Source: Cyanidioschyzon merolae
Lineage: Eukaryota
Assembly: GCA_000091205.1 (NCBI GenBank)
Contig: AP006494.2
Reading direction: 5' to 3' (one strand)
DNA length: 64,000 bases
Part shown: piece by piece, positions 1 to 48,932 of the stretch
Position numbering within the stretch: the stretch's first letter is position 1
How the letters are laid out: the number at the start of each line of letters is the position of its first letter
Notes under the pieces: generated by a model
Seen by the model: only the letters and a program-made list of their open reading frames with translations
Told to the model about the DNA's origin: nothing
Databases searched by the model: none
Made by a program: the position numbers and the translations under genes

Positions 1-1240
1 AAGCGTAGAAGGCTATGGAGAAGAAGAAGCCCCTGTTGCTTTCGACGTCGCCGTTGACACCATCCCGCACCGTTTTTCGTATACCCGAATTCCATTGGGC
101 TCGCTCATTTGTTTTCGCAGTGATGGTCTCGGGGTACAGAGGACATCGGCCAGGCGCAGAGATATACGCGATGGCTGCTTGCGCTCCAGCAGCTCCCATG
201 CTGTCTGGCATCCGAACAAGAACGCAAGGTAGCAGTCTTTGGCTCGCTCCAGCCGGATGGTTCCATCGTCATGGCGTTGGTGCTCCCGGTCCTCTGGTGC
301 CTGCCGACGCTACCCAGCGTCAGTGTCCAACAACAATCCCGACTCTCTCGGTCCACAGTGAATGGTTGAGACGCTTCGGTGATTGCTGGCATGTCCAGGC
401 AGCGCTTCAGCGGCGCGAATACACCGCGCTGTTTTCGAGAGCATTCTCGCTGCCCTCAGTTCACGATACTGAAGGCAGCATCACGCGGCATGGTACGCGG
501 AAGGACTATACGCCTTTCACAGAGCAATCAGCGATGACGCTTCGGATAGGTCCAGGGTTCGCTTCTTGTGAACCTGGGCGGATGACCGCTCGGCGCTCTT
601 CATTGGGTACTTTGCAACGGTGCGATGCGTTAGTCGCACCTGAGAATGCCACTCGGATCACGAGTGTGGACGCCAAACAGGCCGGGGTGCGGGAGCCCTC
701 CACACCGGACAGCGTATGATCGAATGGGGTGCAGAGAACGCACCAGCATATGATTCCTGTTCGCGCACATACTGATCGAACTGAGCTTGCAATGATCACG
801 TGCTATCCCACGGGGTACGGACAACGCCTTTATGCCCTTTTTGGAGACAGAAGCAATCGCGTTCGCATCATGCTCAGTCTACAGTGATGTCGTCTTCGGT
901 GCCAGGAAACTCTTCCAAGCCGCTCTGATTCGAGATCGCCTGAGCCTGCGGATGTCCCAGTCCAGGCCTGTCGAGTCGTTCACGGTGATGGTCGAGGTCA
1001 TCAGCAACGTAAGTTGTGTCCCATGTGCGGGGCTCTGTCGCTGAATCCTTACGTCCAGCATCCGCCACATGTATTCGCTGGGTACCAGAGACGACAAAAC
1101 GCGGGCCATGACCATAGCAAATGCTTTTTCGAGGATTGAAAAGCCCCCGCCCAGACCATGACACTATCTAATCGCGGAGCATGATCATCATCAGCAGCAG
1201 CGCTCTCTTGATTCAGCTCCCGAATTCACCGATGCTTGCC

Positions 1241-2134
1241 TCACAGTGCAAACACTCGTTTCCCGGTATTGACGACGCGGCTCCGACGCCAGGAAAACGC
1301 GACTCTTGATCGATCAATTGGATAGCGAACAGAGAGAAGCTTCAGCGTAAAGCGTGGGCCTAGTTCCTGAGTGCGCACACGAACCCGCTCGGCAGCTTCT
1401 GGATCCCGCGACGCCTCAAAGATGTAACGGTAGAAGCGGAGAAAGATATAGTCACGTTGATTACGAACGAGCACAACCTGGCGACTTTGCGGTGTTCCCT
1501 CGTGCGGAAACAGTGCGCTCAAGCTGCGCTCAATGTGTCGTCCGAGATTCGTCTGAAAGTTACATGTCACCACTTCCACAGGTAAAGGTGTCGGCGTGCC
1601 TCGATGCGGAATCGATTCACTGCAAACCACCGAGGACAACCGATACAGATATACTGGGCCATCCGGTAGGCGCACATGTTGCAGATACCGCAACGATAAA
1701 CCCTTTCCCTGAACGATAACCCACAAATCCGTAAACCCTTGGTCGATACCGGCTTTACAGAGCTCTTCTAGCGTTCGCTGGTCCCTCTCTCGGTACACGG
1801 AACCTGGGAAGAGAAACAAGAGGTCACCGATCAAGTCGTAGATCTGCCTTCCCGTCGGCTGCACGCTCGTTGTGAGCAGCACACGAGGTCTCCGCTCACC
1901 CCGCAAAACAGCTCGAATGTCCTCTTCACCAAACGGCGGCTCCTGTTCCCAGTCCAGCTCAGGCCTGTACACCCTGGTGGACTCGAGTGTTCGCGGGCGT
2001 TGCAGCGGCTCCTCGCCCTGCAAAGCGCGCTGTTTTCGGCGAGCTTTCGCTTCACGACGTCGTTTTCGCCGCTCAGCGAGCAGGAGCGCCCGACGCTCTA
2101 CCCGTGCTAAACGTCGAGCTCGGTCTCGTGGCAT
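1241..2134 (-). CDS. IMP4: Brix-domain U3 snoRNP protein (IMP4/RPF1-like)
   Basis: 297-aa ORF with an ATG start. It has an N-terminal Arg/Lys-rich region followed by a Brix domain. Motifs PRVLLTTS, ELGPRFTLKLL and a C-terminal KRVFAL align with IMP4 (PKVMITTS, ELGPRFELKLY, ARKRVFLST). Confidence 0.7.
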   Translation of the reverse strand: MPRDRARRLARVERRALLLAERRKRRREAKARRKQRALQGEEPLQRPRTLESTRVYRPELDWEQEPPFGEEDIRAVLRGERRPRVLLTTSVQPTGRQIYDLIGDLLFLFPGSVYRERDQRTLEELCKAGIDQGFTDLWVIVQGKGLSLRYLQHVRLPDGPVYLYRLSSVVCSESIPHRGTPTPLPVEVVTCNFQTNLGRHIERSLSALFPHEGTPQSRQVVLVRNQRDYIFLRFYRYIFEASRDPEAAERVRVRTQELGPRFTLKLLSVRYPIDRSRVAFSWRRSRVVNTGKRVFAL

Positions 2135-2330
2135 GTGCAGTAACTGCTTATTCCCTGCTGAAGCGTCCTCGTCGACCTGTTATACGACAGCGCTACCACG
2201 CTGACGTTCACGAGTCGCAGCCGGCAACGCGGGCTCGGGCAAGCCACGCCAGCGGCGGTACCGGCCGCAGCTGCGAATAGGACAGCGCCGGTGCGAGGTG
2301 CTCTACGCAGCTACACCGGAGTTCAGCAGG

Positions 2331-3038
2331 ATGGCAGACTCTGCGTCGTCGTTTTCTCTGACGGTCTTTTCATCGTCGGGGAAGTTGAATCAACTTGAGT
2401 ATGCACTAAAAGCGGTGCAAGCGGGTGCTACTGCGCTTGGTATTCGCGCAAAAAACGGTTGCGTTATCGCCACGGAGAAGCGACTGCCTTCGGCGCTCGC
2501 GGATGCGCGAACCATTCGAAAGGTAGAGGCAATCACTGCCGAGATTGGAGCGGTATATGCTGGAATGGGACCAGATTATCGGATCATGGTCAAGAAAGCT
2601 CGCAACGCTGCACAGAAATATTATCAAGTGTACCGCGAGTCGATACCGGTTCACCAACTGGTTCGCGAGGTGGCCACTGTGATGCAGGAGTTCACGCAGT
2701 CGGGCGGGGTGCGTCCCTTCGGCATGAGCATGCTGATCGCCGGTCACGACGAGGAAGGCCCACAACTAGCTCAAGTGGATCCTAGTGGTAGCTTCTTTTT
2801 CTGGAAAGCAACGGCGATCGGCAAAAACATGGTGAACGCGAAAACTTTTTTGGAAAAGCGCTATCAGGACGACGTAGAGCTGGAGGATGCGATACACATG
2901 GCGATTCTCACTTTGAAAGAAGGATTCGATGGAAAAATGATGGAGCATAACATTGAGATCGGCGTCGTTGGCGCTGAACGTCGTTTCCGGGCATTGACAC
3001 CCGCCGAGATTCGTGACTACCTGGGCGAGGTCGAGTGA
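2331..3038 (+). CDS. PSMA2: 20S proteasome subunit alpha type-2
   Basis: Near-collinear match to human PSMA2: [51 protein letters not shown] and [14 protein letters not shown]. The likely ATG is at 2331; the ORF track begins upstream at 2298. Confidence 0.92.
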
Positions 3039-4042
3039 GGCGCGACCTCCTGCCATCATCGTTCTCTGTTGCTGTTGGTGCTCATGTTTGGTGCGCGCAG
3101 AGCATTTTGGTTTTGTGGGCAGAACGCGACGCCAGACTGCCCTTGATGTGCAACTGATGCGCCTCCAACGGACGAAAATCAGCAAAGAACGCTTCGCTAC
3201 CTCGAGTTGAAAGCGGTTAGCTGGTCTATGGCAAGAGGCATGCCTCCGAACAGCTAGAGTTTTGTTCGCGCGATGCCCATATCCGCTCGGAACAAAAATC
3301 TCCGGATAGCTTTAGTGGCTTGCTGCCGTCGAGGCGGCACTGCACGTCGGCCGCTGGCGTGATGTACTGGCTGTGCGGATAGCCGCCGACGCCACCGCCG
3401 CCGTCGTTGTCGTCGTTGCCGCTGCAGACGCAGCTGTCAAGCTGAAAGCTGCCCCCGGCACAACTGGGAACAGATGCAAGTGCTTTTGCGCAGCGACTGC
3501 ATCGCTCGGGTCGTCATGTGCAATTGCGAGCGCGGCAAGCAACTATCCAGACGGAAGCGTATGTAGAGCTCGTTCGGATCGGGCGAATTCTCGGTTGCAA
3601 TGAAACGCGTACGCCAGGATGCTGTTCGTGATGCGCAGCGGCACAAGTACGGTTGCTATTCCTAGCACAAGGCGTTTTGCAGTGGATACCGACGTGACAT
3701 CGGCAACGTGAATTGCCTGCCGACCGTTGCACTGCAGCCGACGTGGCAACTCCTGCGAAGACCGCGCTACCCGCTGATGCCCGAGAATGCCCATAAGAAG
3801 AGTGACTTGCAGGCCGTCCATGTACCGGAGGATGACAGACGATGCTCAGAGCGTGATGGTGCGCTCTAGTGCAGTGCTGTGTCGAGCGATGCGATGCAAT
3901 GCAGCACGAAACGAGCGCAGGCATCGAAGGCGCCCTAGCTATTGAACGCCCTCGCGACGACCAGACTATGCGAATGCTGTCGCTGAGGAGCGGCAATTTA
4001 CTGCCCCGTGCGCATCGCATATGCTTGTGACGATGTTCGCGA

Positions 4043-5869
4043 CTAGTGCTCGATGCCTGCTGCCCCGGAAGCACGCGTTATCGAAGTTGCACATCGAAAC
4101 CCTGAAAGCATGAAATCCCGAAGCGCGAGAGCGCGTCCCCAGATACTATCTTCCATGTAGATGACGCGCATCAAGGCGTCGATCACGTCTACTGCTGCGT
4201 GATGTACGGGATACTGCAGCGGCTTTGGAATACGAGTGCGCAGCATCCAGAACCGATCCTGTGTAACACTTTTCATAAGACAGCAGGCGCGCAGCCCCTC
4301 AATACCAGCAAATCGATCGGAACCACTATCTTTCGTACCTCCGAAGGGCAGCGACTGGCATAAATAATTCACGCCAAAATCATTCTCATTCACCATTCCG
4401 ACGAGCAGCTTATTTCGAATCATCGCTGCACGCTTGCGATCAGCAGAGAAGACGCTGCTCCCGAGGCCGTACGCTGAACCGTTCACGATCCGAATTGCCT
4501 CCGCATCACCGTCGAAGGGGGTGATGATCATGACAGGACCGAACACTTCGTTTTGCATGATTCGGCTGTGTAGGGGCACGTCAGTCAAGAGCGTTGGCTC
4601 CCAGTACGAGCGCCCTGCGCGCTTGCCGCCACATAGGAGTCGCGCGCCGTCTTTCACTGCGTCGTTGATCAGTGACTCGAGTTCCCGCAGGGAGGCCTCG
4701 CCCATGGTCATTGCACCGAGATCGACGCCGATACGGAGTGACTGCACGCGCACCTGCATCTCGGCAACGAAACGCTCGTAGCTAGGGCGCTGCACCAGGA
4801 TGCGCTCGATCCCGACACAATTCTGGCCGCTGTTTTGAAAAACACCGCGCATCGCAATATCAAGTGCCTGCTCGAGATCCGCGTCATCACAGACAATAAA
4901 AGCGTCCTTACCGCCGAGCTCCAGGACACAGGGTTTCAGTTGCTCGGCTGCTGCCATGGCCACCTGACGCCCGACTCTCGTCGAACCCGTGAAGAATACT
5001 TTGGCAACACCCTTGTCGACAACGAGCGCCTCGCCGGCGCTGGCGCCGCCAGTGACCAACTGCACCAGTTCCGATGGATGCTTGCAAGCACGAAGCACAT
5101 GCCGCACAAGCTCGACATAGTAGACAGAGCACCAGGAGCTATACTCGCTGCTCTTAACGACGATTGCATTGCCCGCAAACAGGGCCGCTAATATCGGATT
5201 CATGAGGTTGTGGAATGGATAGTTCCACGGCGCAATCGCCGCAATGACACCCAGTGGCTCGAACTGCACCCAGGCGCGTTTATGCATGGTGAGCGGTCCG
5301 ACCGAGCGATACTCGGGAGCCAATGCCCGCTCGCCTTCGCGTAAAAGCCAGCGGATCTTCTCGAGCGTCGTGAGTAGCTCGCCCAGATATGCATCGACGA
5401 ACGTTTTCCCGGTTTCCAGCACGCTAGCCTGCAGGATAGACTCGCGATTCGCCAGAATTGCTTTGCGGAGCGCACGTAGAACTCGGCGCCGCTCAGCAAA
5501 CGACGTCTCTCTCCAGAGTTGCTGGGCATCGGACGCCACTTGAACGCGAGCGCGTACATCTGCCGCACTCTGGTCCAGTACCCATCCTAGCAGTCGACCA
5601 GTTGCTGCCGCCGCGCACCGGTGACAGCGATCGGCTTCGGTTTTCTTTCGACAACAGATGGGTTTTCCGGGTTGATCATCGGCGGTAACAGGAATAAGGA
5701 AAAGGCCGTCCTCCGTGAGGTCCGGCAGGCCCAGTGTCACGCACGGGACGTGCTCTCCGCGTTTGCAGAGCCATCTTGTCAGAATCAAACCAAGCAGCGC
5801 AGACACCAGTGCCGCGATAACGCTCCCACTCGTTAAGGGCAGAGCATGTATGGGTTGGTCAAGGTGCAT
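4043..5869 (-). CDS. Aldehyde dehydrogenase with N-terminal transmembrane segment (ALDH22/MSC7-like)
   Basis: Carries the ALDH catalytic motifs LELGGKDA (Glu) and QNSGQNCVGIER (Cys), and FTGSTRVGR. There is an N-terminal hydrophobic helix. The probable ATG is at 5867-5869. Further upstream, the ORF track's 5' extension reads through the 3' end of the adjacent mobile element. Confidence 0.8.
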   Translation of the reverse strand: MHLDQPIHALPLTSGSVIAALVSALLGLILTRWLCKRGEHVPCVTLGLPDLTEDGLFLIPVTADDQPGKPICCRKKTEADRCHRCAAAATGRLLGWVLDQSAADVRARVQVASDAQQLWRETSFAERRRVLRALRKAILANRESILQASVLETGKTFVDAYLGELLTTLEKIRWLLREGERALAPEYRSVGPLTMHKRAWVQFEPLGVIAAIAPWNYPFHNLMNPILAALFAGNAIVVKSSEYSSWCSVYYVELVRHVLRACKHPSELVQLVTGGASAGEALVVDKGVAKVFFTGSTRVGRQVAMAAAEQLKPCVLELGGKDAFIVCDDADLEQALDIAMRGVFQNSGQNCVGIERILVQRPSYERFVAEMQVRVQSLRIGVDLGAMTMGEASLRELESLINDAVKDGARLLCGGKRAGRSYWEPTLLTDVPLHSRIMQNEVFGPVMIITPFDGDAEAIRIVNGSAYGLGSSVFSADRKRAAMIRNKLLVGMVNENDFGVNYLCQSLPFGGTKDSGSDRFAGIEGLRACCLMKSVTQDRFWMLRTRIPKPLQYPVHHAAVDVIDALMRVIYMEDSIWGRALALRDFMLSGFRCATSITRASGAAGIEH

Positions 5870-5880
5870 CACCTTGACAC

Positions 5881-8316
5881 TACAGTAGTGGCGAGAAGCC
5901 CGCCCTAGACAAGGCGCCGCCAACTAACGTGCAGACGCCTCGCAGTTTTTTTGGACCGGCCATCGACTACTGCTTCCACCTTTTTCTCATATGGTTCGAC
6001 TTTAAGTGATTGTCCAACAAAGTTCCCTCTTGTCAGCTCTGGAGGTCTCGTCTCCAGCACCGCACATTTCCTTATATTGATCGCGGCGATAAAGTCTCGA
6101 TTCAAAAACTCCATACGTTTCTTGCCATCAATGGTTGTGCTAACCAATACGAGTAGCCCTCGAACTTTCGCCATCCTTTCCATTTCCTCTTCCGTCAGCG
6201 GTCCGTGCTTTGCTATATCTTCAGGGCTCCTCTAGCGCCTTTCCATCTCGACCCTTTGAAGTGTACACCCCAGTTCATGGTGTGTAAACGTCGTTCGGAA
6301 CTCATCTACAGGTATCGTAACAAAACGCCTTGTGCACTCCTTGTGCACCCTCGTCGTTGGAGCTGGTGTACACCCTTTTTGTGTCTTCCAGCGCCCTGCT
6401 CCGTACGCTACTACGAGCCTTTGAATTTCATTCTCCTGCAAGGCGCTCAACTGATTGCGAAAATTCGCGAACGCGCGCTGCCTCCCACCGTATAGATTCA
6501 TTCGCAGACGAGCCCACCGGGGCTTGGTATACTCCTCCCACAGCGCATCCCGATGCGCAATGCGAAATTCCATGAACTCCCGAAAAGCTTCAAAGTCCGC
6601 TCCGCGGCTCGTCACCTCGCTCAAAGCTTCCAGGTGCTCTTTCACTCCTGCGTTCCACGTCTCGATTTTCTTCCTCGCATTCCTTATACCGGATTCTCGA
6701 TCGTATCACGCTCTCGAGAATCTCAACAGACGCATGTCTTTCTGACGCAAGTTACCGTCAGCGCCATCTTCCGCACGCTTGGGAGCAGCGATGGCTATGA
6801 TATTCGTATTCCCAGGGTCCGCGCCAACGACAAAGTCGTTATCCTGGACTTTCTGCGTCTCAATACCCGCCTCCTTCTTTTCTTCATGCTTCGTCGCGTC
6901 AACCGTAAAGTCGTTATCCTGTACTTCCTGCGTCGCAGCACCAGCCTCCTCCTTTTCTTCATCCTTCGTGACGGGTGCAGCCGGGGACGGAACTGGACGA
7001 TCTGTCTTCAAGCGCCGATAGTGTACACATATATATGGATACTCCATCGGTTTCGATCACACCAGTGAATACCTTTTGTTTGCTGACTTTGAGACGTTTG
7101 AAATTGAAGATGTTCTTCCAATACGTCTCCCGGTTTTCGCCGGTAAACTCCTCCCTGCTAACATTGAACTCTGGACTGATCTCCCTCATGATGCCACGAA
7201 GGATTCTGGAATCGATAGTCACGAAATGTGACGTGATGTTGCACATTGGAACCACGCTGATGCGCTTACCAATTAGGACAGCCTTCCGTCTCTCCCACTC
7301 TCCATTTGTCTCTTCACTCAGCATCACCTCTGCCTTGCACTCGAGTTCTCGGTCCAGAAACACAAAATAGCGCAGGATGAGGCGATAGTATCTTTCCTGA
7401 TCTTTTTCAGCTCTGATATCTTGTCTGTTGGATTCGCCAGCCCCAGTACAGCACGATGTTCTTGTATCACCGCACGGATTACAGAGGCTTCATTCGTGCT
7501 CCTGCGCGACTTCTTCTTGTCGACGGATTCGATCTCATGTTCACGCTTGCGATGCTTCGTGATGCCATTGATAATCGACCATATCCCCTTGCGAGAGATG
7601 CCAGGGTACAGCGCAGACACGGCGCGTATCATGAATCGTTCGAGATTCATTATCGAATGGTTCCTCAGGTTCGTGAGGTACTTCATCGCCCCATAGTCTT
7701 AAATACCCCAGTCACCCTTGATTCGAATACCCTCGAAGCTGTAAAAGGGATGTTTTTCGTGGAGGGCATCTACTAGCTCATTTTTCCTCCGCGCTTCCTC
7801 TGTACCAAGCATCAGGCGACTAAGAAACGTCTTGTCGCAAAACTCGTCTGGAATCTCGACCGTTTCCATGTGCGTCACGTCTTCGTACATCTCCCTCACC
7901 AAATGCATCAGTCCTAGCGACGCATTGACAATACTCTTCGAGTACGAGTCGACACGTGTTTCGATAGCGTCTCGCAACTTTTCCTTGTAGGGATCCTTGA
8001 TATGTCCAAGAAGAAAGGTTTGCACAACCATCTCGTCGGACAGTTGTCTTTCCCGCAGCCTTCGACGTAGGGCCTCCCCCTTTCGGTCCTTCTTCTCTTC
8101 CTTTTCTTCTGGACTCGGCACTGTTTTTTGTTTTTTTCTGGCAGCCGGCGACCCTGGGCCTCCAGGATCGTCAACTTGCATTTTCATGACTTTCCTTTTT
8201 TGTTTTTTGAAAAAGGACGCCCTTTGAACGCTTCTGTTATATACTGCTAATAATCAATTGAATATTTTTACTTGAGGTTTGAAACAAAATGAACTGAAAA
8301 ACTGTACTTGTCTATA
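5881..8316 (-). mobile_element. TnpB/Fanzor-like (OMEGA-type RuvC nuclease) element, copy 1
   Basis: ~2.4 kb unit, >95% identical to copy 3. It encodes the RuvC-I-like DFVVGADPGNTNIIAIAA motif (ORF 6706..7047) and the RuvC-III RDFIAAINIRKC motif (ORF 5905..6183). Boundaries were set by where copies 1, 2 and 3 stop aligning; the 3' end is ...gggcgggcttctcgccactact(g/a)ta. Confidence 0.7.
5905..8187 (-). pseudogene. Fanzor/TnpB-like nuclease reading frame (interrupted)
   Basis: Collinear ORF pieces: 7699..8187 (N-terminus, basic NLS-like KKQKTVPSPEEKEEKK), 7324..7686, 6959..7363, 6706..7047, 6232..6645 and 5905..6183. Copy 1 has its own TAA at 7696-7698, plus the lesions shared with the other copies. 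Confidence 0.6.
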
Positions 8317-10391
8317 AAGTTAAAGAAAATACAACTTTTACATTAGATCTACATGCTAGAGATCAGGATCACGTTCCCCTTCAACGGCGACATGTGCGTC
8401 GTGTCTCATGCCTGCCTGATCTCCCAGGCGTGCTCACCGAGCGCGATGCAAACTAGTCGCAAACTATTTATCAAAGAACAACTATCTTAAAGCCCCACAC
8501 ATTACGTCCGCCTAAGAGGTCTAGTTTTTCCGGAGAAGCTCTGAAAGTGGGTCAACGCGGGGTGTTCGAGCGACGGCGAAGGAAGCCCACGCCAGGGACC
8601 TTTACCGCAACGAACGGAGGGGCAGAGGCAGTAGCAGCAGAGAATGATGACGAGAGTTCTGAGTAGTCATCCGCCCCTCCGGAAACAACGCTGCAGGTTC
8701 GGGCGCAATTCCTGGATCAATCCTCGGACTCGGGCTCAGTATTACCTCCTACCATGGGTGCCAACCTCAACTTTGGAAACAATCTCGGCGGATGCTTTGG
8801 AAGACGGCTGGCAGTATGTTCACTGCCGAAGCTGGAACAAACGACTTGCCCGCCCATGTGTTTTGGGAGCGGATACGTAGCCGCTGAAAGGGTGGTTCAC
8901 AGAGTATCCCCAGTGGTTGAAGGTTGCTCCACGCGTTCGGCAGCGTAACGGTTGCATTCGAATCGACCTTGACTAGAGTACTTCTGATTCTACGCTAGCG
9001 CTGCGCCAAGCACTCAGTGAACGACTGGAATGCACGAGGCGCTTGTGGCATGTGCACTCACACACCCCGTGGAGGGTGCATCTAAATCGACGACGTATCT
9101 CTCGAGTACCGCAGCACTATTCCCATTCCCGTACGCGCTACGACTCGATAGGTTTCGCATCATGGAATATTTGCGGGATAGCCTCGGAATTGAACTACGA
9201 GATATCGAATTACCAGTACAGTAAAGAGGAACTGATACAAATCGAGGACTCTGCAATAGGAAAAGAGACCCAGCGGGATACGGAGAAGGAGACACAAAGG
9301 CCTCATGATCCACCTAGATGCAAAATAACCAGAGAAAGCAGCTCAGGAAAGAGCCCGAAGAAGACGAAGAAGACCAACAAGAAGAAACAGAAGAATAGAA
9401 AGAAGAGCTCCCGAACGAGCCCATCATGAGTGATCCCCTGAAAGAGCACCCCAGCGGGAACTCAAGAAAGCTGCCGCCAAACTCAATCACCTACTCACAG
9501 CGCTGAAGATCCGAAAAGCCATGCATGCAAGCCTTTAGACCAATTGGCACGCGAGTATGTATATGGGAATCAGAAGATTGCCAGAGAACTGGGACTGCTT
9601 GCACCAGAACGCAACAGTTGCAAACCTCGGTACCTGAAACGACGTACCAAAACTCGGAATGATGAATGCCACCGACTCTATAAGATCGTCAACCGCACCG
9701 CCATACGTGCCAACGCTGGAGACAAGGAAGCGAAAGCAGCGCTACCGGCGCTACAGGCGCAACATGAGGAAGCTATCAAAAGAAAGAAGAAACGTTCCAG
9801 AGAAGACAAACGAGAGGATCGAAACCGCAAAATCGCCTCCCTGACGGAATCTATGCTAGAGAGCACCAACGAAGATGAGACCTGACGCTCCATTCGATCG
9901 AGACTGGACGCACCAGAAAAGTGCTTGGGGCTCACACCAATCGTTCATAAGGAATCGCTGAGGACGGAGAGTGCCTCAGTGAATGAGACCGGGATAGACC
10001 ACGGGACAGAGCTGCATGAAGAAGCAACTGGGCACTGCCAAGACCCAGTCCATTGGTACCAATATGCTGCAGAACTACCGCGCCTCGAACATTACCAGCA
10101 CATGAATCGTTCCAGTGCAAACTACAGATATGATGCGAAAAATATCAATCGTGAAATGAGACAGTGTCGAGCGTCAGCGCACGCAGCACTGCCGCATAGA
10201 CCCACAGCGTCTAGCGACGAGCATCGCCCCAGTCTATCGCACGCGCCGCCGCGAAGATCCGGCACCGCAGGCCGCCGACGTGGGCGTGTCTGCGGCATCG
10301 GCTAGCTTCCAAGCGCCTTCAGCAAGCGCGGCCTCTGCTCCTGTTGCCGCTGCCGCTCGTGGTAAACGTACGTTACCGCACTTTGTGGGGC

Positions 10392-14719: not shown

Positions 14720-17087
14720 CATGAAGAAGTGTGTTCTATTTCAAAAATAAACAAGCCAATGGAAAGCTATCGACATGCAGGTCGGGGATCCTGGAGGGCC
14801 ATCTTCGCCGGGTTCGGCGAAGAAAACGGAAAACAATACCGATCCCAGGGGAACAAGAGAAGGCGAAGAAGCACAAGCAGGAAGCCAGGCGTCAAAAGCA
14901 ACTAGAAAGACGACAACACCGCGAGATTTGAGTGAAAGCTTGTCTTCTGAGACATACCAAGGATTCGTACAAGCAAAATTCACAAGAGGCTGTCAGAATC
15001 CTTGTCGCGTCGTACTCCAGGAGGGAACATTAGGCTTCTTTAGGACTCATGCATTTGCTGAAGGAGATGTACGACAACGTGCCGCATATGGAAACAGTCG
15101 ATATTCCAGAGGAATTTTTCAACAAGACCTTTATTCGTCACCTGACGCTTGGCACAGGGGAAGCGCCGAGGAGAAATGAACTGGTGCATGCCCTCCATGA
15201 AAATCATTCCGAGTACCGCTTCAACGGTGTTCGATGCAAGGGTGACTAGGGTATGTACACCTACGAAGCGATGAAGTACCTCACGAATCTGAAGAACAGT
15301 ACGACCATGAACCTCCAACGTTTCATGATACGCGCCATCTCTGCGCTGTACCAGGGCCTCTCTCGCAGAGGGATACGGGCCATCATCGACGGCATCACGA
15401 ACGATAGTACGAGTGAACAGGAGACCGAATTCGTCAAAGAGAAGACATCACGCAGGGGAAAGAATGAAGCTTTTGTGATCGGTGCAGCTATTCAAGAGCA
15501 TCGTGAAGTCTTGGGGCTTGTCAACCCAGCAGAAATGGTATCAGATGTGAAAAAAGATGAGGAATGATGCTCTCCCCTCAACCTGTGCTATTTCGTATTC
15601 CTGAACCGAGAACTCGAACGCAAGGCGGAGACGGAGCAAAGTGAAAAAAAAGAAGAGACAGACAGACAGACGGACAGACGGAAGGCTGTGCTGCTGGAGA
15701 AGCGCTTCAACGTCGATCCGTTGTCCAACATCAAGTCATATTTTGTGACAATCGACTCCAAAATCCTTTACGGCATCATGAGGAAGATCAGTCCAGAGTT
15801 CAATGTTAGCAGGGAGGAGTTTACCGGCGAAAACCGGGAGACGTATTGGAAGAACATCTTCAATTTCAAACGTCTCAAAGTCAGCAAACAAAAGGTATTC
15901 ACTGGTGTGATCGAAACCGATGGAGTATCCATATATATGTGTACACTATCGGCGCTTGAAGACAGATCGTCCAGTTCCGTCCCCGGCTGCACCCGTCACG
16001 AAGGATGAAGAAAAGGAGGAGGCTGGTGCTGCGACGCAGGAAGTACAGGATAACGACTTTACGGTTGACGCGACGAAGCATGAAGAAAACAAAGGAGCGG
16101 ATCCTGCGATGCAGAAAGTCCAGGATAACGACTTTGTCGTTGGCGCGGACCCTGGGAATACGAATATCATAGCCATCGCTGCTCCCAAGCGTGCGGAAGA
16201 TGGCGCTGACGGTAACTTGCGTCAGAAAGACATGCGTCTGTTGAGATTCTCGAGAGCGTGATACGATCGAGAATCCGGTATAATGAATGCGAGGAAGAAA
16301 ATCGAGACGTGGAACGCAGGAGTGAAAGAGCACCTGGAAGCTTTGAGCGAGGTGACGAGCCGCGGAGCGGACTTTGAAGCTTTTCGGGAGTTCATGGAAT
16401 TTCGCATTGCGCATCGGGATGCGCTGTGGGAGGAGCATACCAAGCCCCGGTGGGCTCGTCTGCGAATGAATCTATACGGTGGGAGGCAGCGCGCGTTCGC
16501 GAATTTTCGCAATCAGTTGAGCGCCTTGCAGGAGAATGAAATTCAGAGGCTCGTAGTAGCGTACGGAGCAGGGCGCTGGAAGACACAAAAAGGGTGTACA
16601 CCAGCTCCAACGACGAGGGTGCACAAGGAGTGCACAAGGCGTTTTGTTACGATACCTGTAGATGAGTTCCGAACGACGTTTACACACCATGAACTGGGGT
16701 GTACACTTCAAAGGGTCGAGATGGAAAGGCGCTAGAGGAGCCCTGAAGATATAGCAAAGCACGGACCGCAGACGGAAGAGGAAATGGAAAGGATGGCGAA
16801 AGTTCGAGGGCTACTCGCATTGGTTAGCACAACCATTGATGGCAAGAAACGTATGGAGTTTTTGAATCGAGACTTTATCGCCGCGATCAATATAAGGAAA
16901 TGTGCGGTGCTGGAGACGAGACCTCCAGAGCTGACAAGAGGGAACTTTGTTGGACAATCACTTAAAGTCGAACCATATGAGAAAAAGGTGGAAGCAGTAG
17001 TCGATGGCCGGTCCAAAAAAACTGCGAGGCGTCTGCACGTTAGTTGGCGACGCCTTGTATAGGGCGGGCTTCTCGCCACTACTATAC
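14720..17087 (+). mobile_element. TnpB/Fanzor-like element, copy 2 (chimeric: divergent 5' third)
   Basis: From ~15785 to 17087 it is near-identical to copies 1 and 3. From ~14720 to 15785 it is only ~70-75% identical at the protein level (MHLLKEMYDNVPHMETVDIPEEFF vs MHLVREMYEDVTHMETVEIPDEF). A (GACA)n microsatellite sits at 15655-15690, just upstream of the ~15785 junction. The 3' end is ...ttctcgccactactata. Confidence 0.65.
14775..17062 (+). pseudogene. Fanzor/TnpB-like nuclease reading frame (interrupted)
   Basis: ORF pieces 14775..15179, 15049..15249, 15253..15567, 15688..16008, 15920..16261 (GADPGNTNIIAIAA), 16283..16735 and 16784..17062 (RDFIAAINI). Stops are in-frame at 15565-15567, 16259-16261 and 16733-16735. 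Confidence 0.6.
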
Positions 17088-17157
17088 ACCGCTGCCGTCG
17101 TTCGACTTAGAACGGCTTTTGGTATTGGCGGTGGTACAGCGGCCTTGCCTCGTGTTT

Positions 17158-19026: not shown

Positions 19027-20362
19027 ATCAGTATCCAGTCGGCACAGTGACTGTGCCTCTTCACCAGTGACGGGCTCTTGACGAAAACCGAAGCACCAGG
19101 TACAGTGCTCGACCGCGCCGCTGCAGCACGCAGCGGGCCAACACTGTCAGAGAGTTTCGACGTTGACGTTCGCGCCGAGGCTCGCCAGCGCGCATGATGC
19201 ACGCTCGTCATCTGTTCATTCGTGTTTTGTATGTTTATTCATGAACATATGAAGGCAGTATCTGGTCCAGACGCGCATGGCCTACCCATGTCCGATCGAG
19301 GTCGCGAAACCTTGTTCAATGAATGAGATCGAGTGGACGAAGCCTTTAAAGCCCCAGATGCGTCGATGCTGACAGCTAGCTGGGCAGAGGCCGTCGTTCA
19401 CCTACAGATGCTTCTCCGCTCGATAAGCGAGCGATCAGTCCTCCCGTCAGACTCAGAAAATAGAGGCAGCCACTGTTGGGGTACAACGCGAACCGTGAGC
19501 TCCGTTCCGCAACGCTGGATGCACTGCCGCCGCTGACGCCATGCGGCAGGAGAACGGCTCTTCGTTGCGTTTAGAGGCGGCGCCTGAAGAGTTCGCGGTA
19601 TCTGCGTAGCGCACCGATCAAGCAGGGATCCCTTGCGTAGATCCACAGAATACAGATGTTTGATGGTGTCGGAACGGTGGATCTTAGCCAGTGCCGCCCG
19701 GAGATGTGAAGAAGGTACCTGCTCGGAGAGCGCTTCCACGATGTACTGCAGTCAGATGGATGCCTGGAATGCAAGGTTCGGAAAAATGATCGGTTTTATG
19801 AACGCAACAAAGACTCGCCAATATGAAAAATGCAATTGACTACGAATTTTCCGGTGATTTCGTGAACGCGTCCGTGTGGAATACATCCTATTCATGCTCG
19901 AGTTTGGGATGCAAACAGCAGCGGTTGGTGCATATCCAGAACGTCCACCAAGGGAATCCATCTGATCTTCCTCACTTACAGGATATACATACGGCCAGCG
20001 ATGAGGTCCATCGGATTCATACGTCTGGCTGCTTTCATCTATGCGGTGTAGACACGCTGGACAATGAAGCTTCTACTCCAAGGTGTCGCTTATGAGCCCT
20101 AGAGCCACTGCAACGAAGCTGCTCTTGTCCGGACTTGCAACCCAGCGCAACCCAATGGTCAGCGTCCACTAGAATCCGACACAGCAGCCCGTTACCCGCA
20201 GACATCAGAATGGAAGCGTCTCGCTGCAGGACGATGGGCATGCGCCGCAGTCTTGCCAATGAGCCGGATCAATCGCCGCATCCGTAGAACAAAGAACAGA
20301 GACCAACTACCAACTAGCAACGAGATAACGATTTCTTTCGCCATCTACGATAAACGTTAAAA

Positions 20363-20850
20363 TGAGGAAAAGTTTCCTCGTTGGCGAAAGTTTACCTTAC
20401 AGGCGGAAGGTCCCGCGAGCTGAACGAGTGTGCCCGGCGAGTGCTTCATGCGACTCTACAGAGGCAGATGCCAAAGTAAGATATGAGCAGCAGCTCATCG
20501 TAACGCAATGCTTTCTGGGAATAGGAGCAGGACGCTGCGTCTGGGCGTCGCCCTTGTCGCAGCGGACTCCTCGTATATCGCTTCGCAGTGCCGCAGACAG
20601 TACGTCTGTCTGCGCAGCTCGCAGGCTCCCAGAATGATCATGAATCCAGACCCGGTATCGGGTGAAGCATTCCTCGAGCCGAGGCCCTCAGTGGTATAGC
20701 AAAGCCGTTCGAGCTCCATGAACTATCTGCTCCAGCGGTTCAAGCGCAAAGGTGGATGATTAGGGTAGGTACGAGGCACACACGATAGGACGTATGAAAC
20801 GACCAAAATATCCGAGAAGAAGTATAGGTAATGTAAATTGGAGGTAGGTG
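20363..20850 (+). repeat. Dispersed ~470-bp repeat family R2, copy A
   Basis: Shares the core (t)taccttacaggcggaaggtcccgcgagc and the 3' portion ...cctcgagccgaggccctcagtggtatagc...gataggacgtatgaaacgacc with the copies at 26085-26552 (-), 28140-28386 and 32288-32715. Confidence 0.6.
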
Positions 20851-21071
20851 CTTCATCACGGACGCTTTCCAGAAAGCCGTTATCCTTTCCGAATTCTAGG
20901 ATCCATGGTCAATGGAAACGTCTTGTCAATAAAAAAATCGCGCTCAATGGGCGCACCCCGGAGATCGGGCAGTCAACTGACGCGATGCGCGTGCCGTTGT
21001 TGAAGGGAAACTCAATTGGGATCAGTAACGTGTTGTTCAGCTGTGAACGTCGGATATCGGTCCAGGCCATA

Positions 21072-23497
21072 GCAAAGTACAGTCTTTCAGTTCGTTTTTG
21101 TTTCAAACTTCAAACAAGTCCAGTCAAGTGTTTTTTTGCAGTATATAACAGCAGGGTTCAAAGAGCGTTCTTGTTCAAAAAAAAAGAAAGCTATCAAAAT
21201 GCAAGTCCACGATGCTGGAGGCTCAGTGTCGCCGGCTGCTAGAAGAAAACAAAAAACAGTGCCGAGTCCAGAAGAAAATGAAGAGAAGGAGGACTGAAAG
21301 GGGAGGCTCTACGTCGAAGGCGGCAAGAAAGACAACTGTACGACGAGATGGTGGTGAAAGCTGGTCTTCCTAAACATATCAAGAATCCGTACAGGGAAAA
21401 GTTGCGAGACGCTATCGAAACACGTGTCGACTCGTACTCGAAGAGTATTGTCAATGCGTCGCTAGGACTGATGCATTTGGTGAGGGAGATGTACGAAGAC
21501 GTGACGCACATGGAAACGGTCGAGATTCCAGACGAGTTTTTCGACAAGACGTTTCTTAGTCGCCTGATGCTTGGTACAGAGGAAGCGCGGAGGGAAAATG
21601 AGCTAGTAGATGCCCTCCACGAAAAACATCCCTTTTACAGCTTCGAGGGTATTCGAATCAAGGGTGACTGGGGTATTTACAGCTATGGGGCGATGAAGTA
21701 CCTCACGAACCTGAGGAACCATTCGATAATGAATCTCGAACGATTCATGATACGCGCCGTGTCTGCGCTGTACCCTGGCATCTCTCGCAAGGGGATATGG
21801 TCGATTATCAATGGCATCACGAAGCATCGCAAGCGTGAACATGAGATCGAATCCGTCGACAAGAAGAAGTCGCGCAGGAGCACGAATGAAGCCTCTGTAA
21901 TCCGTGCGGTTATACAAGAACATCGTGCTGTACTGGGGCTGGCGAATCCAACAGACATGATATCAGAGCTGAAAAAGATCAGGAAAGATACTATCGCCTC
22001 ATCCTGCGCTATTTTGTGTTTCTGGACCGAGAACTCGAGTGCAAGGCAGAGGTGATGCTGAGTGAAGAGACAAATGGAGAGTGGGAGAGACGGAAGGCTG
22101 TCCTAATTGGTAAGCGCATCAGCGTGGTTCCAATGTGCAACATCACGTCACATTTCGTGACTATCGATTCCAGAATCCTTCGTGGCATCATGAGGGAGAT
22201 CAGTCCAGAGTTCAATGTTAGCAGGGAGGAGTTTACCGGCGAAAATCGGGAGACGTATTGGAAGAACATCTTCAATTTCAAACGTCTCAAAGTCAGCAAA
22301 CAAAAGGTATTCACTGGTGTGATCGAAACCGATGGAGTATCCATATATATGTGTACACTATCGGCGCTTGAAGACAGATCGTCCAGTTCCGTCCCCGGCT
22401 GCACCCGTCACGAAGGATGAAGAAAAGGAGGAGGCTGGTGCTGCGACGCAGGAAGTACAGGATAACGACTTTACGGTTGACGCGACGAAGCATGAAGAAA
22501 AGAAGGAGGCGGGTATTGAGACGCAGAAAGTCCAGGATAACGACTTTGTCGTTGGCGCGGACCCTGGGAATACGAATATCATAGCCATCGCTGCTCCCAA
22601 GCGTGCGGAAGATGGCGCTGACGGTAACTTGCGTCAGAAAGACATGCGTCTGTTGAGATTCTCGAGAGCGTGATACGATCGAGAATCCGGTATAATGAGT
22701 GCGAGGAAGAAAATCGAGACGTGGAACGCAGGAGTGAAAGAGCACCTGGAAGCTTTGAGCGAGGTGACGAGCCGCGGAGCGGACTTTGAAGCTTTTCGAA
22801 AATTCATGAAAGTTCGCATTGCGCATTGGGATGCGCTGTGGGAGGAGTATACCAAGCCCCGGTGGGCTCGTCTGCGAATGAACCTATACGGTGGGAGGCA
22901 GCGCGCGTTCGCGAATTTTCGCAATCAGTTGAGCGCCTTGCAGGAGAATGAAATTCAGAGGCTCGTAGTAGCGTACGGAGCAGGGCGCTGGAAGACACAA
23001 AAAGGGTGTATACCAGCTCCAACGACGAGGGTGCACAAGGAGTGCACAAGGCGTTTTGTTACGATACCTGTAGATGAGTTCCGAACGACGTTTACACACC
23101 ATGAACTGGGGTGTACACTTCAAAGGGTCGAGATGGAAAGGCGCTAGAGGAGCCCTGAAGATATAGCAAAGTACAGACCGCTGACGGAAGAGGAAATGGA
23201 AAGGATGGCGAAAGTTCGAGGGCTACTCGTATTGGTTAGCACAAGCATTGATGGCAAGAAACGTATGGAGTTTTTGAATCGAGACTTTATCGCCGCGATC
23301 AATATAAGGAAATGTGCGGTGCTGGAGACGAGACCTCCAGAGCTGACAAGAGGGAACTTTGTTGGACAATCACTTAAAGTCGAACCATATGAGAAAAAGG
23401 TGGAAGCAGTAGTCGATGGCCGGTCCAAAAAACTGCGAGGCGTTTGGACAACAGATGGAGACGTTTCGCCTGGGGCGCGTTCGCCGCCTCTACTGTA
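21072..23497 (+). mobile_element. TnpB/Fanzor-like element, copy 3
   Basis: The 5' end aligns with copy 1 from ...at|agcaaagtacag, and includes a TATA-like gcagtatataacag at 21141-21154. Up to 23449 it is near-identical to copies 1 and 2. The last ~45 bp is a divergent (~65% identity) but homologous version of the 3' terminus, ending ...cgccgcctctactgta. Confidence 0.7.
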
Positions 23498-23507
23498 CCG
23501 CTGGTGA
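21202..23507 (+). pseudogene. Fanzor/TnpB-like nuclease reading frame (interrupted; ~760 codons)
   Basis: Pieces: 21202.. (MQVHDAGG..., then a copy-specific 1-nt deletion and TGA), 21348..22055, 22016..22420, 22332..22673 (RuvC-I-like DFVVGADPGNTNIIAIAA at 22542-22595), 22695..23147 (Cys/His-rich RLVVAYGAGRW...GC...C...HHELGC), and 23196..23507 (RuvC-III RDFIAAINI at 23280-23306). Confidence 0.65.
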
Positions 23508-23710
23508 CACCAACGTTTTTCTTTTGAAAGACGTTCGTTGTCAGCGGTGTGCTCGCTGCGCTTTCGCAGCCGATTTTGTGACCCGAACGGCTTTATCGCC
23601 ACTGGGGTGCGGCACCGTGCCCGGTAGCGCTTGTGGGCACTGTTCGAAGCTGTCCGGTGTGTCCAGTGCGGCTTTTATTCTATGAGAATACGCGTACGCA
23701 TAGGAGAGTG

Positions 23711-25546: not shown

Positions 25547-26084
25547 TCGCTGCAGCGCATGAATCCACAGTCGAGGTCTCGTGGCTCGCGGAGCGTGCCC
25601 TCGAAGCCGCGCACTGACGGCCGGGTCTGTCCCGTGACGCCCATCTGCGAGCGACGCAACAAGCGGACACATGTCGACGCGCAATAGCCGCAGATGCACC
25701 TGGCAATGATCCGGACACCGAATATCGCGCCCAAGCTGAACGCATCACCTGAAGCGAACTTGTTCGATGCGAAAGATGTAGCAGCCAGTTGTATGCCGGT
25801 GCTTGCGCATCCAACCATCCAGCCATCCAACCATCCAGCACAGATGCCCATTGCTGCGCTGCGATCGGCAATGCTAGGCGAAAAGCGCGTGCTCCGCCGA
25901 GCCTCCACGTGCGATGGCGCCTGCTGGTGGGATCTCTGGAGCAGCGCCCTGCTGCGGTGCCCTGTCGTTGCCTGCTGGTTTTTTCAGATGACAAAACGTT
26001 TCCATTGACCATGGATCCCTGAAGTCGGAATGGATAATGGCTTTCGTGAAAGCGTCCATGATGAAGCGCCTTCCCTCAAGTTCC

Positions 26085-26552
26085 GTTACCCGTACTTCCT
26101 CTCGTCTGCACTGGTCGTTTCGTATGTTCTATCGTACGCCGAGTGCCTGTTTTGAGCACCCACCGTAGCGCTCACACCACTGAAGCAGATGCTGCACAGA
26201 GACAGAACGGCCTTGTCATGCCACTGAGAACGTCGCCTCGACGCGTAGTTCTCCGACACGGAATCGGGATTCATCTTCAATCTGGGAGACAGCAAGCTCC
26301 ACAGTCAGACCTAATGCCTGTGGCAGCGCGAAACGATAGCTAGGAGACAACCGCAACCATGACGACACCTGGATGCATTCTAACCAATTCTAGTCTCAGA
26401 ATAAACAGCGTTGCGGGCGAGTTGCTCAGGTCGCGCCACTGCACGCGCCACTGGCAGGAGCATGAAGCACGATCCTGGGAGACTCGTCTGGCCCGCGGGA
26501 CCTTCCGCCTATAAGGTAAACGTTCGACAGTACGGAAAGCTTTTCTCCCTTG
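26085..26552 (-). repeat. Repeat family R2, copy C (full length, minus orientation)
   Basis: The reverse complement aligns with copies A and B along its whole length, from ggagaaaagctttcc...taggcggaaggtcccgcgggc to the ...gatagaacatacgaaacgacc 3' region. Confidence 0.55.
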
Positions 26553-26834
26553 TAACATGTATCTTAGGGGGGAAATAAATATTGATATACTTGCCGGTGA
26601 GTCGTGAGTCTCGTACCTTTTTTCGATATCGCGCATTCAACACGCGCACCTGGGAGGTCAGGCCGTCGCGAGACACGACACGCATGTCGCCGCTGGGGAG
26701 AAACCCGATCGTGACCAATCGTTTACTGTTTGTTCTACAGTACAAGTTGTGTTTGCGTTGACGTCGTAGCCGAGTATGGTGTTTCAATTCGATTATGTTT
26801 CAACGCTCATGTGAGCGTATCCAAGCGATTTTTC

Positions 26835-27085
26835 CCAGTTTGTATCAGAAGCGTTCAAAGGGCGTTGTTTTTCAAAAAAATAAAAAGGAAAGATATGGAG
26901 AAGCCAGTCGAGGATCCTGGGGGCGCAGCGTCGCCGGCAACCGGAAAAACAACAAACAAAAAACAGTGCCGAGTCCAGAGGAACGGAGAAGGACGTAGAA
27001 GCAAAACGGTGCGGCCCTACGTGAAATGCTGCAAGAAAGACGACATTACGACGACATGACGGTGAAAGCGTGTCTTCTAAACTGC
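26835..27085 (+). mobile_element. 5'-terminal fragment (~250 bp) of the Fanzor-like element
   Basis: agaagcgttcaaagggcg...ttcaaaaaaa...ggatcctgggggcgcagcgtcgccggc...aaaaaacagtgccgagtccag aligns with the 5' ends of copies 1 and 3, then diverges at ~27085. Confidence 0.5.
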
Positions 27086-28139: not shown

Positions 28140-28386
28140 GCCTGCATCCGCAGACTGTCCAAGCACAAACTGACGATGAGACCCGATTCTACGTCGGGTG
28201 AAGCACCCCTCGAGCCGACGCCCTCTGGGGTATAGAAAAGCTGCTCTAGCTCGATGACCTATCTGCTCCAGCGGTTAAGTTCCCAAGGCGGATGATTAGG
28301 TTAGGTACTAGGCACACACGATAGGACGTATGAAACGACCAGAATATCCGAGAATCAGTATAGGTAATGTAATTTGGAGGTAGGGT
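28140..28386 (+). repeat. Repeat family R2, copy D (5'-truncated, 3' half only)
   Basis: Aligns to the copy A 3' half: ...gggtgaagca(c/t)(c/t)cctcgagccga(c/g)gccctc(t/a)g(g/t)ggtatag...gataggacgtatgaaacgacc...ataggtaatgtaa(a/t)ttggaggtagg. Confidence 0.55.
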
Positions 28387-31943: not shown

Positions 31944-32287
31944 TCGCTTGGCCAGCACCGGCAGACGTCCATATCCTTTACTTTTGTCTTATAAAGTACA
32001 GTTTCATTTCGAGCGCCGCAGCATGCACAGACACTTCCCTCTTCGCATATGACACGTCTTTGACAAGTACAGAAGGCCACCCTTGACACCCTTCTCCGTT
32101 TTCGCTCCCAGTATCTGGAACCGCGACTACGGCTCTTCTGCTGATCAATCCCGGGCGATGTGAGCATCGCCCGCTGTGCACGAAACCGCATGCTGTTCCA
32201 TTCGATGGAGGATGAAAGAACAGAAACTAACCACTGACTAGCAACTCGATAACAGTTTCTTTAGACCTTGACAGTACGCGTTGAAAT

Positions 32288-32715
32288 GGGGAAAAGCTTC
32301 CATATCTTCCAAATTTTACCTTCTAGGCGGAAGGTCCCGCGAGCCGGACGAGTCTGCGGTGCTAGCTAGTGCTTCATGCTTCCTCCAGTGGCAGGTGCAG
32401 TGGCGAGACCTGCACAAGTCGTCCGCAACGCATTTCATCTAGGACTAGACGCAGCAAAGCTACATCTGGGCGTCGCCCTGGTCGCAGTGGACTCCCAGTA
32501 TATCGCTTCGCGCTGCTGCAGACTCCTAGAATGCTGATGTTCGGGGACCCCGCGTCCGATGAACCACGCCTCGAGCCGACGCCCTCAGTGGTATGCCACA
32601 GCTATTCTGTCGCCATGCAGCACCTGCTTCAGCGGTGGAAGCGCTACGGCGGGTGCTCACGGCAGACTAGGTGCACGATAGAACATACAAAACGACCAGC
32701 ACATCCGAAAGGAAT
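32288..32715 (+). repeat. Repeat family R2, copy B
   Basis: ggggaaaagcttcc...taccttctaggcggaaggtcccgcgagc...cctcgagccgacgccctcagtggtat...gatagaacatacaaaacgacc is collinear with copies A and C. Confidence 0.55.
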
Positions 32716-33304
32716 TACAAATCATGAAACTCGGTGGCAGGTGTAGCAGTGCAATGAACGCTCGCCCGAAAGCCAATACCCACCATCAATCCGTGATCCA
32801 TGGTCAATGCAGACGTGTTGCCATCGGCAAAAATCGCCTGCATGATGCGCAAAGCGCCACCCGCTCTGGGGGCATTCAAGCGCATCCATCTTTGTCGCAA
32901 ATTAAGGATCCCACTGCCCGCACGGCGGCGCCAGCAACTGCGCCATCGCGGATCGACGGCGCGAACGCGCGGCGCCGAGTCGGCCATTCGCCAAGAACAG
33001 CAGCGATCTTGGAACGCTTGCTAGGGCGCGCGCCCTGCACCAGGGCGGCCCAAAGTGCGCGGGCACGATGGCGTGCCTCGCAGCCGAGGCAAACACTGCG
33101 CACGGCGGGTCGGGGCACTCTGACCCAGTCGCTGCTGTTGTTGATCACAGGACCGAGGCTAGATGCACGACCTCCAACCGAAGCGGTATACGCTCAACGG
33201 ATGGCTATGGTTTGTCGTTGTGCATAGCGTGACGCAGCTACTCGACTCTGCGTACTTACTACGGATTGCCATTCATTCTTCACGTTTGATACCGCATTTA
33301 AATC

Positions 33305-48589: not shown

Positions 48590-48932
48590 ATACTGATGGC
48601 GAAAACTCCCGGTGCTGCAGTGCTATTGAACAGCTACGGTACCGCGTTTCGCTGGTACCGCCAGCACGTTCGCGAGATTCGCTGCGCAGCGACCTGGGCA
48701 CGGTGGCGGCGCTGCAGCAGCGTCGCCTAGCAGCCGTTGCTACGCGTCTTCGGCTGAGAAGGGGCCGCAACGAGGGCAGGACGCTCGTTCGGATCACTGA
48801 CATCGTCGCTATCCATGTCAGCACAACATAGGACAGGTCCATCTAGCGAACTCGGGTATACACGCTGGAGGCTGGGTATCTGCCCGCGGTCGTTATGATC
48901 ACCAGGCCTGACGGGTTTTCAGTGAATGCTTC

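Follow-up and report, generated by a model that had tools for sequence, protein, structure and literature searches.

CMe-1A copies on chromosome 12

We analyzed a 64,000-nt stretch of Cyanidioschyzon merolae 10D chromosome 12 (859,119 bp), referred to below as the window, which carries three interrupted copies of the transposable element CMe-1A. A first-pass annotation of the same DNA, made from the letters alone, had recognized three copies of a Fanzor gene whose reading frames are broken at homologous positions, and had offered three explanations for the breaks: very short introns, programmed recoding, or lesions inherited from a defective master element. Comparison with the published family consensus and with relatives from hot-spring metagenomes leads us to regard the copies, with high confidence, as ordinary pseudogenes of the known single-exon Fanzor1 family CMe-1A, in which the interruptions are ordinary inactivating mutations.

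Copy 1 lies on the minus strand at 5881-8421 (consensus positions 671-3134; repeat extent 8447-5881) and contains two frameshifts and three stops. Copy 2, on the plus strand at 14727-17097 (consensus 869-3145; repeat extent 14762-17094), is mosaic and contains two frameshifts and six stops. Copy 3, also on the plus strand, spans 20939-23533 (consensus 648-3169; repeat extent 20937-23503) and contains four frameshifts and three stops. Coordinates were assigned by blastn alignment with the consensus.

The CMe-1A family was described by Bao and Jurka (2013, Mob DNA 4:12, PMC3627910) as comprising approximately 150 copies in C. merolae, each approximately 80% identical to a 3169-bp consensus; the copies are mostly degenerate, have no terminal inverted repeats, and their target-site duplications were not determined. 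The family is described as non-autonomous, without a transposase of its own, and encodes the Fanzor1 protein CMe-1, listed with 734 aa and one exon (PMC3627910). Aligned with the published consensus, the three window copies are 82-88% identical to it at the nucleotide level over 2.3-2.6 kb, against a family threshold of approximately 80%. The window copies thus match CMe-1A in organism and family, and likewise consist of diverged copies without terminal inverted repeats. They differ from the consensus in their limits, starting at consensus positions 648-869 and so lacking its 5' ~640 bp in the consensus orientation, and ending at 3134, 3145 and 3169. They also differ in being almost the same as one another over the 3' 1.3 kb, versus the ~80% typical of CMe-1A.

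Fanzor1 proteins are TnpB-like RuvC nucleases, which are RNA-guided in characterized relatives. After repair of the frame, the window protein agrees motif by motif with the 734-aa CMe-1 consensus, and a search with this protein brought up a family of sequences from hot-spring metagenomes, 52-79% identical, together with one relative at 32% identity. A Pfam scan of the repaired protein gave no match, and a PDB search with a shallow profile of seven family sequences returned no Fanzor, only a spurious match to angiogenin. A 59-sequence profile of the wider superfamily (2,648 representatives at E<=1e-3) matches the solved Fanzor1 structures from Parasitella parasitica (9cf0, 1.9e-20), Spizellomyces punctatus (8gkh, 1.6e-13) and Guillardia theta (9cer, 4e-9). 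The RuvC-I DPG, RuvC-II DEF/YxT and RuvC-III NRD motifs align with those of the solved Fanzor1 chains, and the catalytic triad D484, E656 and D725 (P0001 numbering) is invariant across the 59-sequence alignment. In copy 3 all three catalytic codons are intact on the plus strand: the RuvC-I Asp (GADPG) at 22560-22562, the RuvC-II Glu (VDEFRT) at 23076-23078 and the RuvC-III Asp (NRDF) at 23283-23285. The zinc-finger region, which in Fanzor1 and TnpB-like nucleases is a target-nucleic-acid-binding insert between RuvC-II and RuvC-III, matches PF07282 (Cas12f1-like TNB) only weakly, with 21.7 bits for P0031 and 12.1 bits for P0001, below the cut-off of 26.3. An AlphaFold2 model based on a 30-sequence alignment had a mean predicted local distance difference test score of 36.7, too low for fold comparison. 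By the profile matches and the published family, the element is a Fanzor1 of an already published family, which bears out its first-pass recognition as a Fanzor. The homology to the characterized Fanzor1 nucleases (8GKH, 9CF0, 9CER) is distant, being seen only with the 59-sequence profile, and the window copies differ from them as pseudogenes.

Reading-frame lesions in the three copies

Relative to the 734-codon consensus, the open reading frame (ORF) is broken by five lesions in copy 1, eight in copy 2 and seven in copy 3, so that 5-8 disabling lesions separate each window copy from the consensus and none has an intact ORF. Four of the interruptions had been described in the title of the first-pass annotation as shared by all copies. 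This description holds for the second, third and fourth; the first, in an A run, is common to copies 1 and 3 only, as the text of that annotation also has it. The remaining lesions are private.

The first shared feature is a run of five A's at 21972-21976 in copy 3 (plus strand) and at 7403-7407 in copy 1 (minus strand), confirmed in the three-frame translation. It corresponds to a 1-nt deletion from an ancestral run of six A's (TTG AAA AAA GAT), which is present in the consensus and in metagenome contig L001. Copy 2 retains six A's at 15550-15555 and is in frame there, with a TGA at 15565-15567 instead, just as had been read earlier.

The second feature is a +1 frameshift, which the first-pass annotation had placed within a 37-nt GT..AG segment whose removal would restore the frame. 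The frame change is real; alignment with the consensus resolves it as the duplication of four nucleotides, ATAT, within an (AT)n run, at 22343-22346 in copy 3, 7033-7036 in copy 1 and 15931-15934 in copy 2. The insertion can be placed anywhere in the ATATATAT run at 22341-22350. Once ATAT is removed, the frame matches the consensus, and the 32%-identical relative has the corresponding segment DGVSVCVHFKRPK. The sequence downstream of the frame change begins TDRPVPSP.

The third and fourth features are in-frame stops, both present where they had been noted in copy 3 and also at the homologous positions of copies 1 and 2. A TGA replaces Arg-468 (AGA; consensus motif FSRARYYRESG) at 22671-22673 in copy 3, 6706-6708 in copy 1 and 16259-16261 in copy 2. 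This codon is AGA in the consensus and in nearly all loci, and the 32%-identical relative reads YYAESG at this place. A TAG replaces Gln-626 (CAG; consensus EMEKCQRSPEDI) at 23145-23147 in copy 3, 6232-6234 in copy 1 and 16733-16735 in copy 2, where relatives have CAG or CAA.

Private lesions are more numerous than first described. In copy 1 there is a TAA on the minus strand at 7699-7701, replacing the Tyr-163 codon, which is TAC in copies 2 and 3 as in the consensus; this stop had been placed at 7696-7698. Copy 2, to which a single private TGA had been ascribed, has five private lesions on the plus strand, all in its divergent 5' half: a 1-nt insertion at 14818, TGA at 14929-14931, TAG at 15031-15033, TAG at 15247-15249 and the TGA at 15565-15567. 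In copy 3 (plus strand) the TGA and the 1-nt deletion reported near 21290 were found at 21295-21297 and after 21300, respectively, and a further 1-nt deletion, missed earlier, follows 23426.

Directly before RuvC-I, each copy contains two tandem 75-nt units encoding 25-aa repeats, which are in frame and do not constitute a lesion (22410-22559 in copy 3, 6820-6969 in copy 1, 15998-16147 in copy 2). The last unit runs straight into the GADPG Asp motif. The number of units varies in the family: the consensus differs from the window copies in having one, L001 has four, and P0007 has more.

All four features are thus common kinds of disabling mutation. Replication slippage removed one A from the A6 homopolymer, and ATAT was duplicated in the short (AT)n run. 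The two stops are the substitutions AGA(Arg468)->TGA and CAG(Gln626)->TAG.

Comparison with the consensus and metagenome relatives

The comparison set consists of 84 aligned family sequences, namely the three window copies and 81 hot-spring metagenome loci (L001 and 80 others). The single-exon consensus ORF of CMe-1A reads across each of the four sites without a break, and so does the 752-aa ORF of L001; the comparison with intact versions that had been proposed for these copies therefore finds none of the four interruptions in either sequence. The L001 ORF has lost the consensus ATG and ends prematurely by a CAA->TAA change near the C-terminus. Near-full ORFs of 747-774 codons occur in 3 of the 81 environmental loci: L001, L005 (774 codons stop-to-stop) and L014 (747).

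The ATAT insertion, the TGA at codon 468 and this sub-lineage's TAG at codon 626 occur only in the window copies and in two metagenome loci, L058 and L069; a stop at codon 468 is found in no other locus of the 84 sequences. The ATAT insertion is missing from all 79 other loci, and these do encode the residues that would be lost with the proposed 37-, 30- and 45-nt segments. Two loci of an unrelated sub-lineage (L075 and L077) have an independent CAG->TAG change at the Gln-626 codon. The A run shows a different pattern: it is in frame, with six A's, in 62 sequences; another 14 (seven haplotypes) lack one base there, and 8 (four haplotypes) have one base more. Because its length deviates in both directions in several haplotypes, the A6 run is, judged from this alignment, a slippage hotspot at which a base has been lost and gained repeatedly across the family, not a conserved shift site.

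The two metagenome loci that share the lesions are orthologs of window loci. L058 corresponds to the copy 2 locus (99.1% identity across 4.1 kb, of which 2.3 kb is flank), and L069 to the copy 3 locus (96.5% identity, including both flanks); L069 also has the private TGA of copy 3 and its 1-nt deletion after 21300. Since orthologous loci carry the same lesions, these are, on the alignments, real, fixed and older than the divergence of the strains. This agrees with the earlier suggestion of inherited lesions in decaying copies, to which the 5-8 lesions per copy and their occurrence at orthologous loci in wild strains both speak.

The same orthologs bear on whether the interruptions could be errors made in sequencing or assembling the reference genome. 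Homopolymer and dinucleotide-repeat lengths, as at the first two features, are typical error sites. However, the independent metagenome contigs have identical lesions at orthologous loci with matching flanks, and each lesion is found in two or three separate copies of one assembly. We regard such errors as extremely improbable, the least probable of the explanations considered here.

Arguments against short introns and programmed recoding

If the interruptions were element-specific spliceosomal introns of 30-45 nt, a mature mRNA would encode an intact Fanzor. The segments proposed as introns are 22337-22373 (37 nt, beginning GTATCC), 22670-22699 (30 nt, GTGATA) and 23127-23171 (45 nt, GTCGAG), all on the plus strand. 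These GT..AG segments do exist, and, as the first-pass annotation had it, removing all three and adding one A restores a single open frame. Introns are also known in some other eukaryotic Fanzor genes: Chlamydomonas CRe-1 to CRe-3 are listed with 5-10 exons (PMC3627910). These belong to the same superfamily and likewise have a eukaryotic host, but CMe-1 differs from them in its single exon.

Several observations speak against splicing. The published entry for CMe-1 gives a single exon, and the consensus runs on unbroken through the sites. The residues encoded by the segments are conserved both among the 79 other loci and in the relative at 32% identity, in which the corresponding parts are present as cited above for the second and third features. 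The A-run shift and five further private lesions would be left unexplained. In a 2026 RNA-seq survey in which introns down to 20 nt were allowed, only 39 introns were found in C. merolae; their 5' site, GUAAGU, is strongly conserved and their branch site, ACUAACC, hardly varies, and the survey makes no mention of transposons. Neither GTAAGT nor ACTAAC, the near-invariant signals of C. merolae introns, occurs in any of the three candidate segments or elsewhere in 20937-23503. Finally, across the element and four host genes, 68-85% of codons or positions lie inside some 20-60-nt GT..AG segment of the needed length class. Because such coverage is expected by chance, the availability of GT..AG segments carries no evidential weight. 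Very short introns, which had been among the explanations first proposed, are thus contradicted by the single-exon consensus, the conserved residues and the missing splice signals, and we give them very little credence.

Programmed recoding would involve a -1 shift at the A run, a +1 shift at the second feature, and readthrough of the TGA and TAG. Homopolymeric A runs can be slippery, and the D-E-D catalytic codons downstream remain intact. Nevertheless, the A run is in frame in 62 of the 84 sequences and the rest deviate in both directions, as described above. The zero frame reads CUG AAA AAG AUC, so that the heptamer would be G AAA AAG, which does not have the slippery form X XXY YYZ. Outside the sub-lineage, relatives have neither the ATAT insertion nor either stop, with Arg (AGA) and Gln (CAG/CAA) in place of the latter. 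Moreover, four different recoding events in one ORF, added to private stops in every copy, would be implausible. The recoding sites proposed earlier are therefore rejected with much the same firmness as the introns.

We favor instead the reading of the three copies as pseudogenes, according to which they would not be translated into a functional nuclease and would drift with no detectable constraint at the protein level. Between copy 3 and its ortholog, the ratio of non-synonymous to synonymous changes per site (pN/pS) is 0.65 (17.5 synonymous and 39.5 non-synonymous changes), which by our own calculation from the counts lies approximately 1.5 standard deviations from neutrality and is not significant. 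For the catalytic half, at the deep divergence from L001, pN/pS is 0.25; therefore the family appears to have been constrained once.

Proposed spread of the lesions between copies

Overall identity is 94% between copies 1 and 3, and 87% between copies 2 and 3, but neither value is uniform along the element. Between copies 1 and 3, identity is 53-88% in the first ~450 nt, rises to 97-100% in the core and falls to 87% at the 3' end; in copy 3 coordinates, the tract of high identity extends from a 5' limit at about 21297-21382 to 23371. Up to ~22195, copy 2 shares about 63-83% identity with copies 1 and 3 (about 75-80% for its 5' half as a whole), with synonymous divergence (dS) of ~0.47; thereafter it is 99-100% identical (dS 0.01-0.04); in its own coordinates the switch lies at ~15783. 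The stretch at 22195-23432 (plus strand), 99-100% identical in all three copies, contains the second, third and fourth features and is a putative gene-conversion tract. The first feature lies inside the stretch common only to copies 1 and 3.

Because of this near-identity, the shared positions of the last three features do not represent independent recurrence. We propose that these lesions arose once, and that ectopic gene conversion then homogenized the 3' ~1.3 kb of three insertions which were already in place within 17 kb of each other; the A-run lesion would lie in a second tract, common to copies 1 and 3 only. Comparison with the orthologs points the same way. In the shared core, L058, the ortholog of copy 2, is nearer to copy 1 (7 differences in 1226) than to copy 2 itself (19 in 1226). 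Patches at 22502-22522 and 22799-22802 are incongruent between the paralogs and the orthologs L058 and L069: here copy 2 departs from L058, its ortholog, and agrees with another paralog or with the majority of the family, or the roles are reversed. The pattern suggests short gene-conversion tracts younger than the strain divergence. Mosaic tracts of near-identity, sharp internal boundaries and incongruent sites resemble the concerted evolution of linked paralogous repeats by ectopic gene conversion, a likeness seen here in three copies only.

The alternative is that a defective master was mobilized in trans, giving three independent insertions of an already dead element that were later modified. 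Each copy adjoins different host genes, so the copies are separate insertions; the family is held to be non-autonomous, with no transposase of its own (PMC3627910); and the last three lesions are identical in all three copies. From such a history, however, one would expect uniform similarity from end to end. This is at odds with the contrast between the two parts of copy 2 in dS and with the low identity at the ends of copies 1 and 3. Beyond the two orthologous loci themselves, no further copies of the sub-lineage occur among the 81 metagenome loci, and the incongruent sites indicate exchange after the insertions existed. Of the earlier proposal of lesions inherited from a defective master mobilized in trans, the inheritance thus stands, and the mosaic identity favors gene conversion over trans-mobilization as the way in which the lesions spread. 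We consider gene conversion the likelier route and trans-mobilization of a dead master unlikely, although clearly less so than introns, recoding or sequencing error.

Several points weigh against the account given here. The pN/pS of copy 3 is below 1, though not significantly, and may reflect residual constraint. The case against expression, splicing and readthrough is built from sequence comparison alone. Gene conversion is argued from the mosaic pattern of identity and from a small number of incongruent sites. Finally, the 10D copies compared were the three in the 64-kb window, of ~150; a dispersed sub-family with the same lesions would favor a mobilized dead master.

Element ends and the 3' hairpin

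In the family, the stop codon is followed by ~60 conserved non-coding nucleotides with a 9-12-bp hairpin at their end; in the family majority sequence the hairpin has a folding energy of -17.7 kcal/mol (z -3.55). The 3' non-coding and hairpin region lies at 23475-23533 in copy 3 and 17063-17097 in copy 2, and the corresponding region after copy 1 is 5855-5880. The terminal hairpin could be the transposon end, a terminator or a part of the guide RNA (ωRNA). It occurs in two versions that are out of register with each other, GTCGTTCGAC..TCGAACGGC and AACGTTTTTC..GAAAGACGTT. Copy 1 stops short of the hairpin, at consensus position 3134; the perfect 9-bp hairpin that comes after it, GTCAAGGTG..CACCTTGAC, is unrelated. 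RNAalifold found no supported consensus structure in the final 300 nt of 43 sequences of the family, in an alignment that is noisy and has the two hairpin types out of register.

The putatively converted 3' 1.3 kb includes the region where the ωRNA would be encoded. It is conceivable, though in our estimation improbable, that ongoing conversion keeps this part near-identical while the dead copies serve as donors of ωRNA or homing targets for the few intact CMe-1 proteins elsewhere. If so, decay of the protein-coding sequence would be irrelevant to a retained role at the RNA level.

Neighboring fragments

The 12-kb neighborhood is a cluster of CMe-1A and TE-N2_CMe elements. In the family consensus, the 5' ~640 bp of CMe-1A is 95% identical to the separate element TE-N2_CMe (PMC3627910). 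A TE-N2_CMe-like piece corresponding to this 5' ~640 bp lies at 20285-20928 (minus strand, 82% identity), abutting copy 3 (20939) and inverted relative to the consensus; it would be either a separate insertion or the product of an inversion. A 5' fragment at 25987-27078 (plus strand; consensus 2-1084, 81% identity) extends to ~27448 at the protein level, where it retains an N-terminal coding remnant of ~30% identity. We also observed a solo TE-N2-like copy at 32215-32826 (minus strand; consensus 1-636, 77% identity) and a short CMe-1A/TE-N2_CMe fragment at 28176-28384 (minus strand).

Two regions further downstream, 53392-53834 (minus strand) and 44731-44942 (plus strand), have weak tblastn similarity to the C-terminal half of the repaired Fanzor, with 30-55% identity over short stretches interrupted by stops. 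These could be noise, or else very ancient traces of a further Fanzor-like element. A 387-bp direct repeat at 48916-49302 and 55172-55558 (97% identity, 6.3 kb apart) is unrelated to CMe-1A.

Host genes

Eight host ORFs in the window, among them CML294C, are identical to annotated proteins in the range BAM80855-BAM80871. Other products encoded in the window are IspG/GcpE, Nup35, SHPRH and HSF, a content that fits a plastid-bearing, intron-poor eukaryote. The host genes beside the three copies are those for an aldehyde dehydrogenase and a bZIP protein and an ORF of unknown function. As these flanking genes are mutually unrelated, segmental duplication was ruled out as the origin of the three copies. 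An empty insertion site was sought in related strains and not found; contig L082, 98.75% identical to 10D, holds both the copy 1 and the copy 2 insertions. Rfam and tRNA scans of the 64-kb window gave no match.

Implications for Fanzor elements in C. merolae

Introns of 30-45 nt would have been striking in a model genome with minimal splicing, and our comparison removes both the micro-intron and the recoding reading of this eukaryotic Fanzor. Beyond correct annotation of the chromosome 12 loci as pseudogenes of the published CMe-1A, the importance of this result is slight: it is a known transposon family behaving ordinarily. The comparison documents the A6 run as a recurrent slippage hotspot across the family, and exchange between neighboring dead copies, which we attribute to gene conversion. 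For a search for an active C. merolae Fanzor, the near-intact ORFs, which occur in only about 3 of the 81 environmental loci (L001, L005 and L014), offer a pointer.

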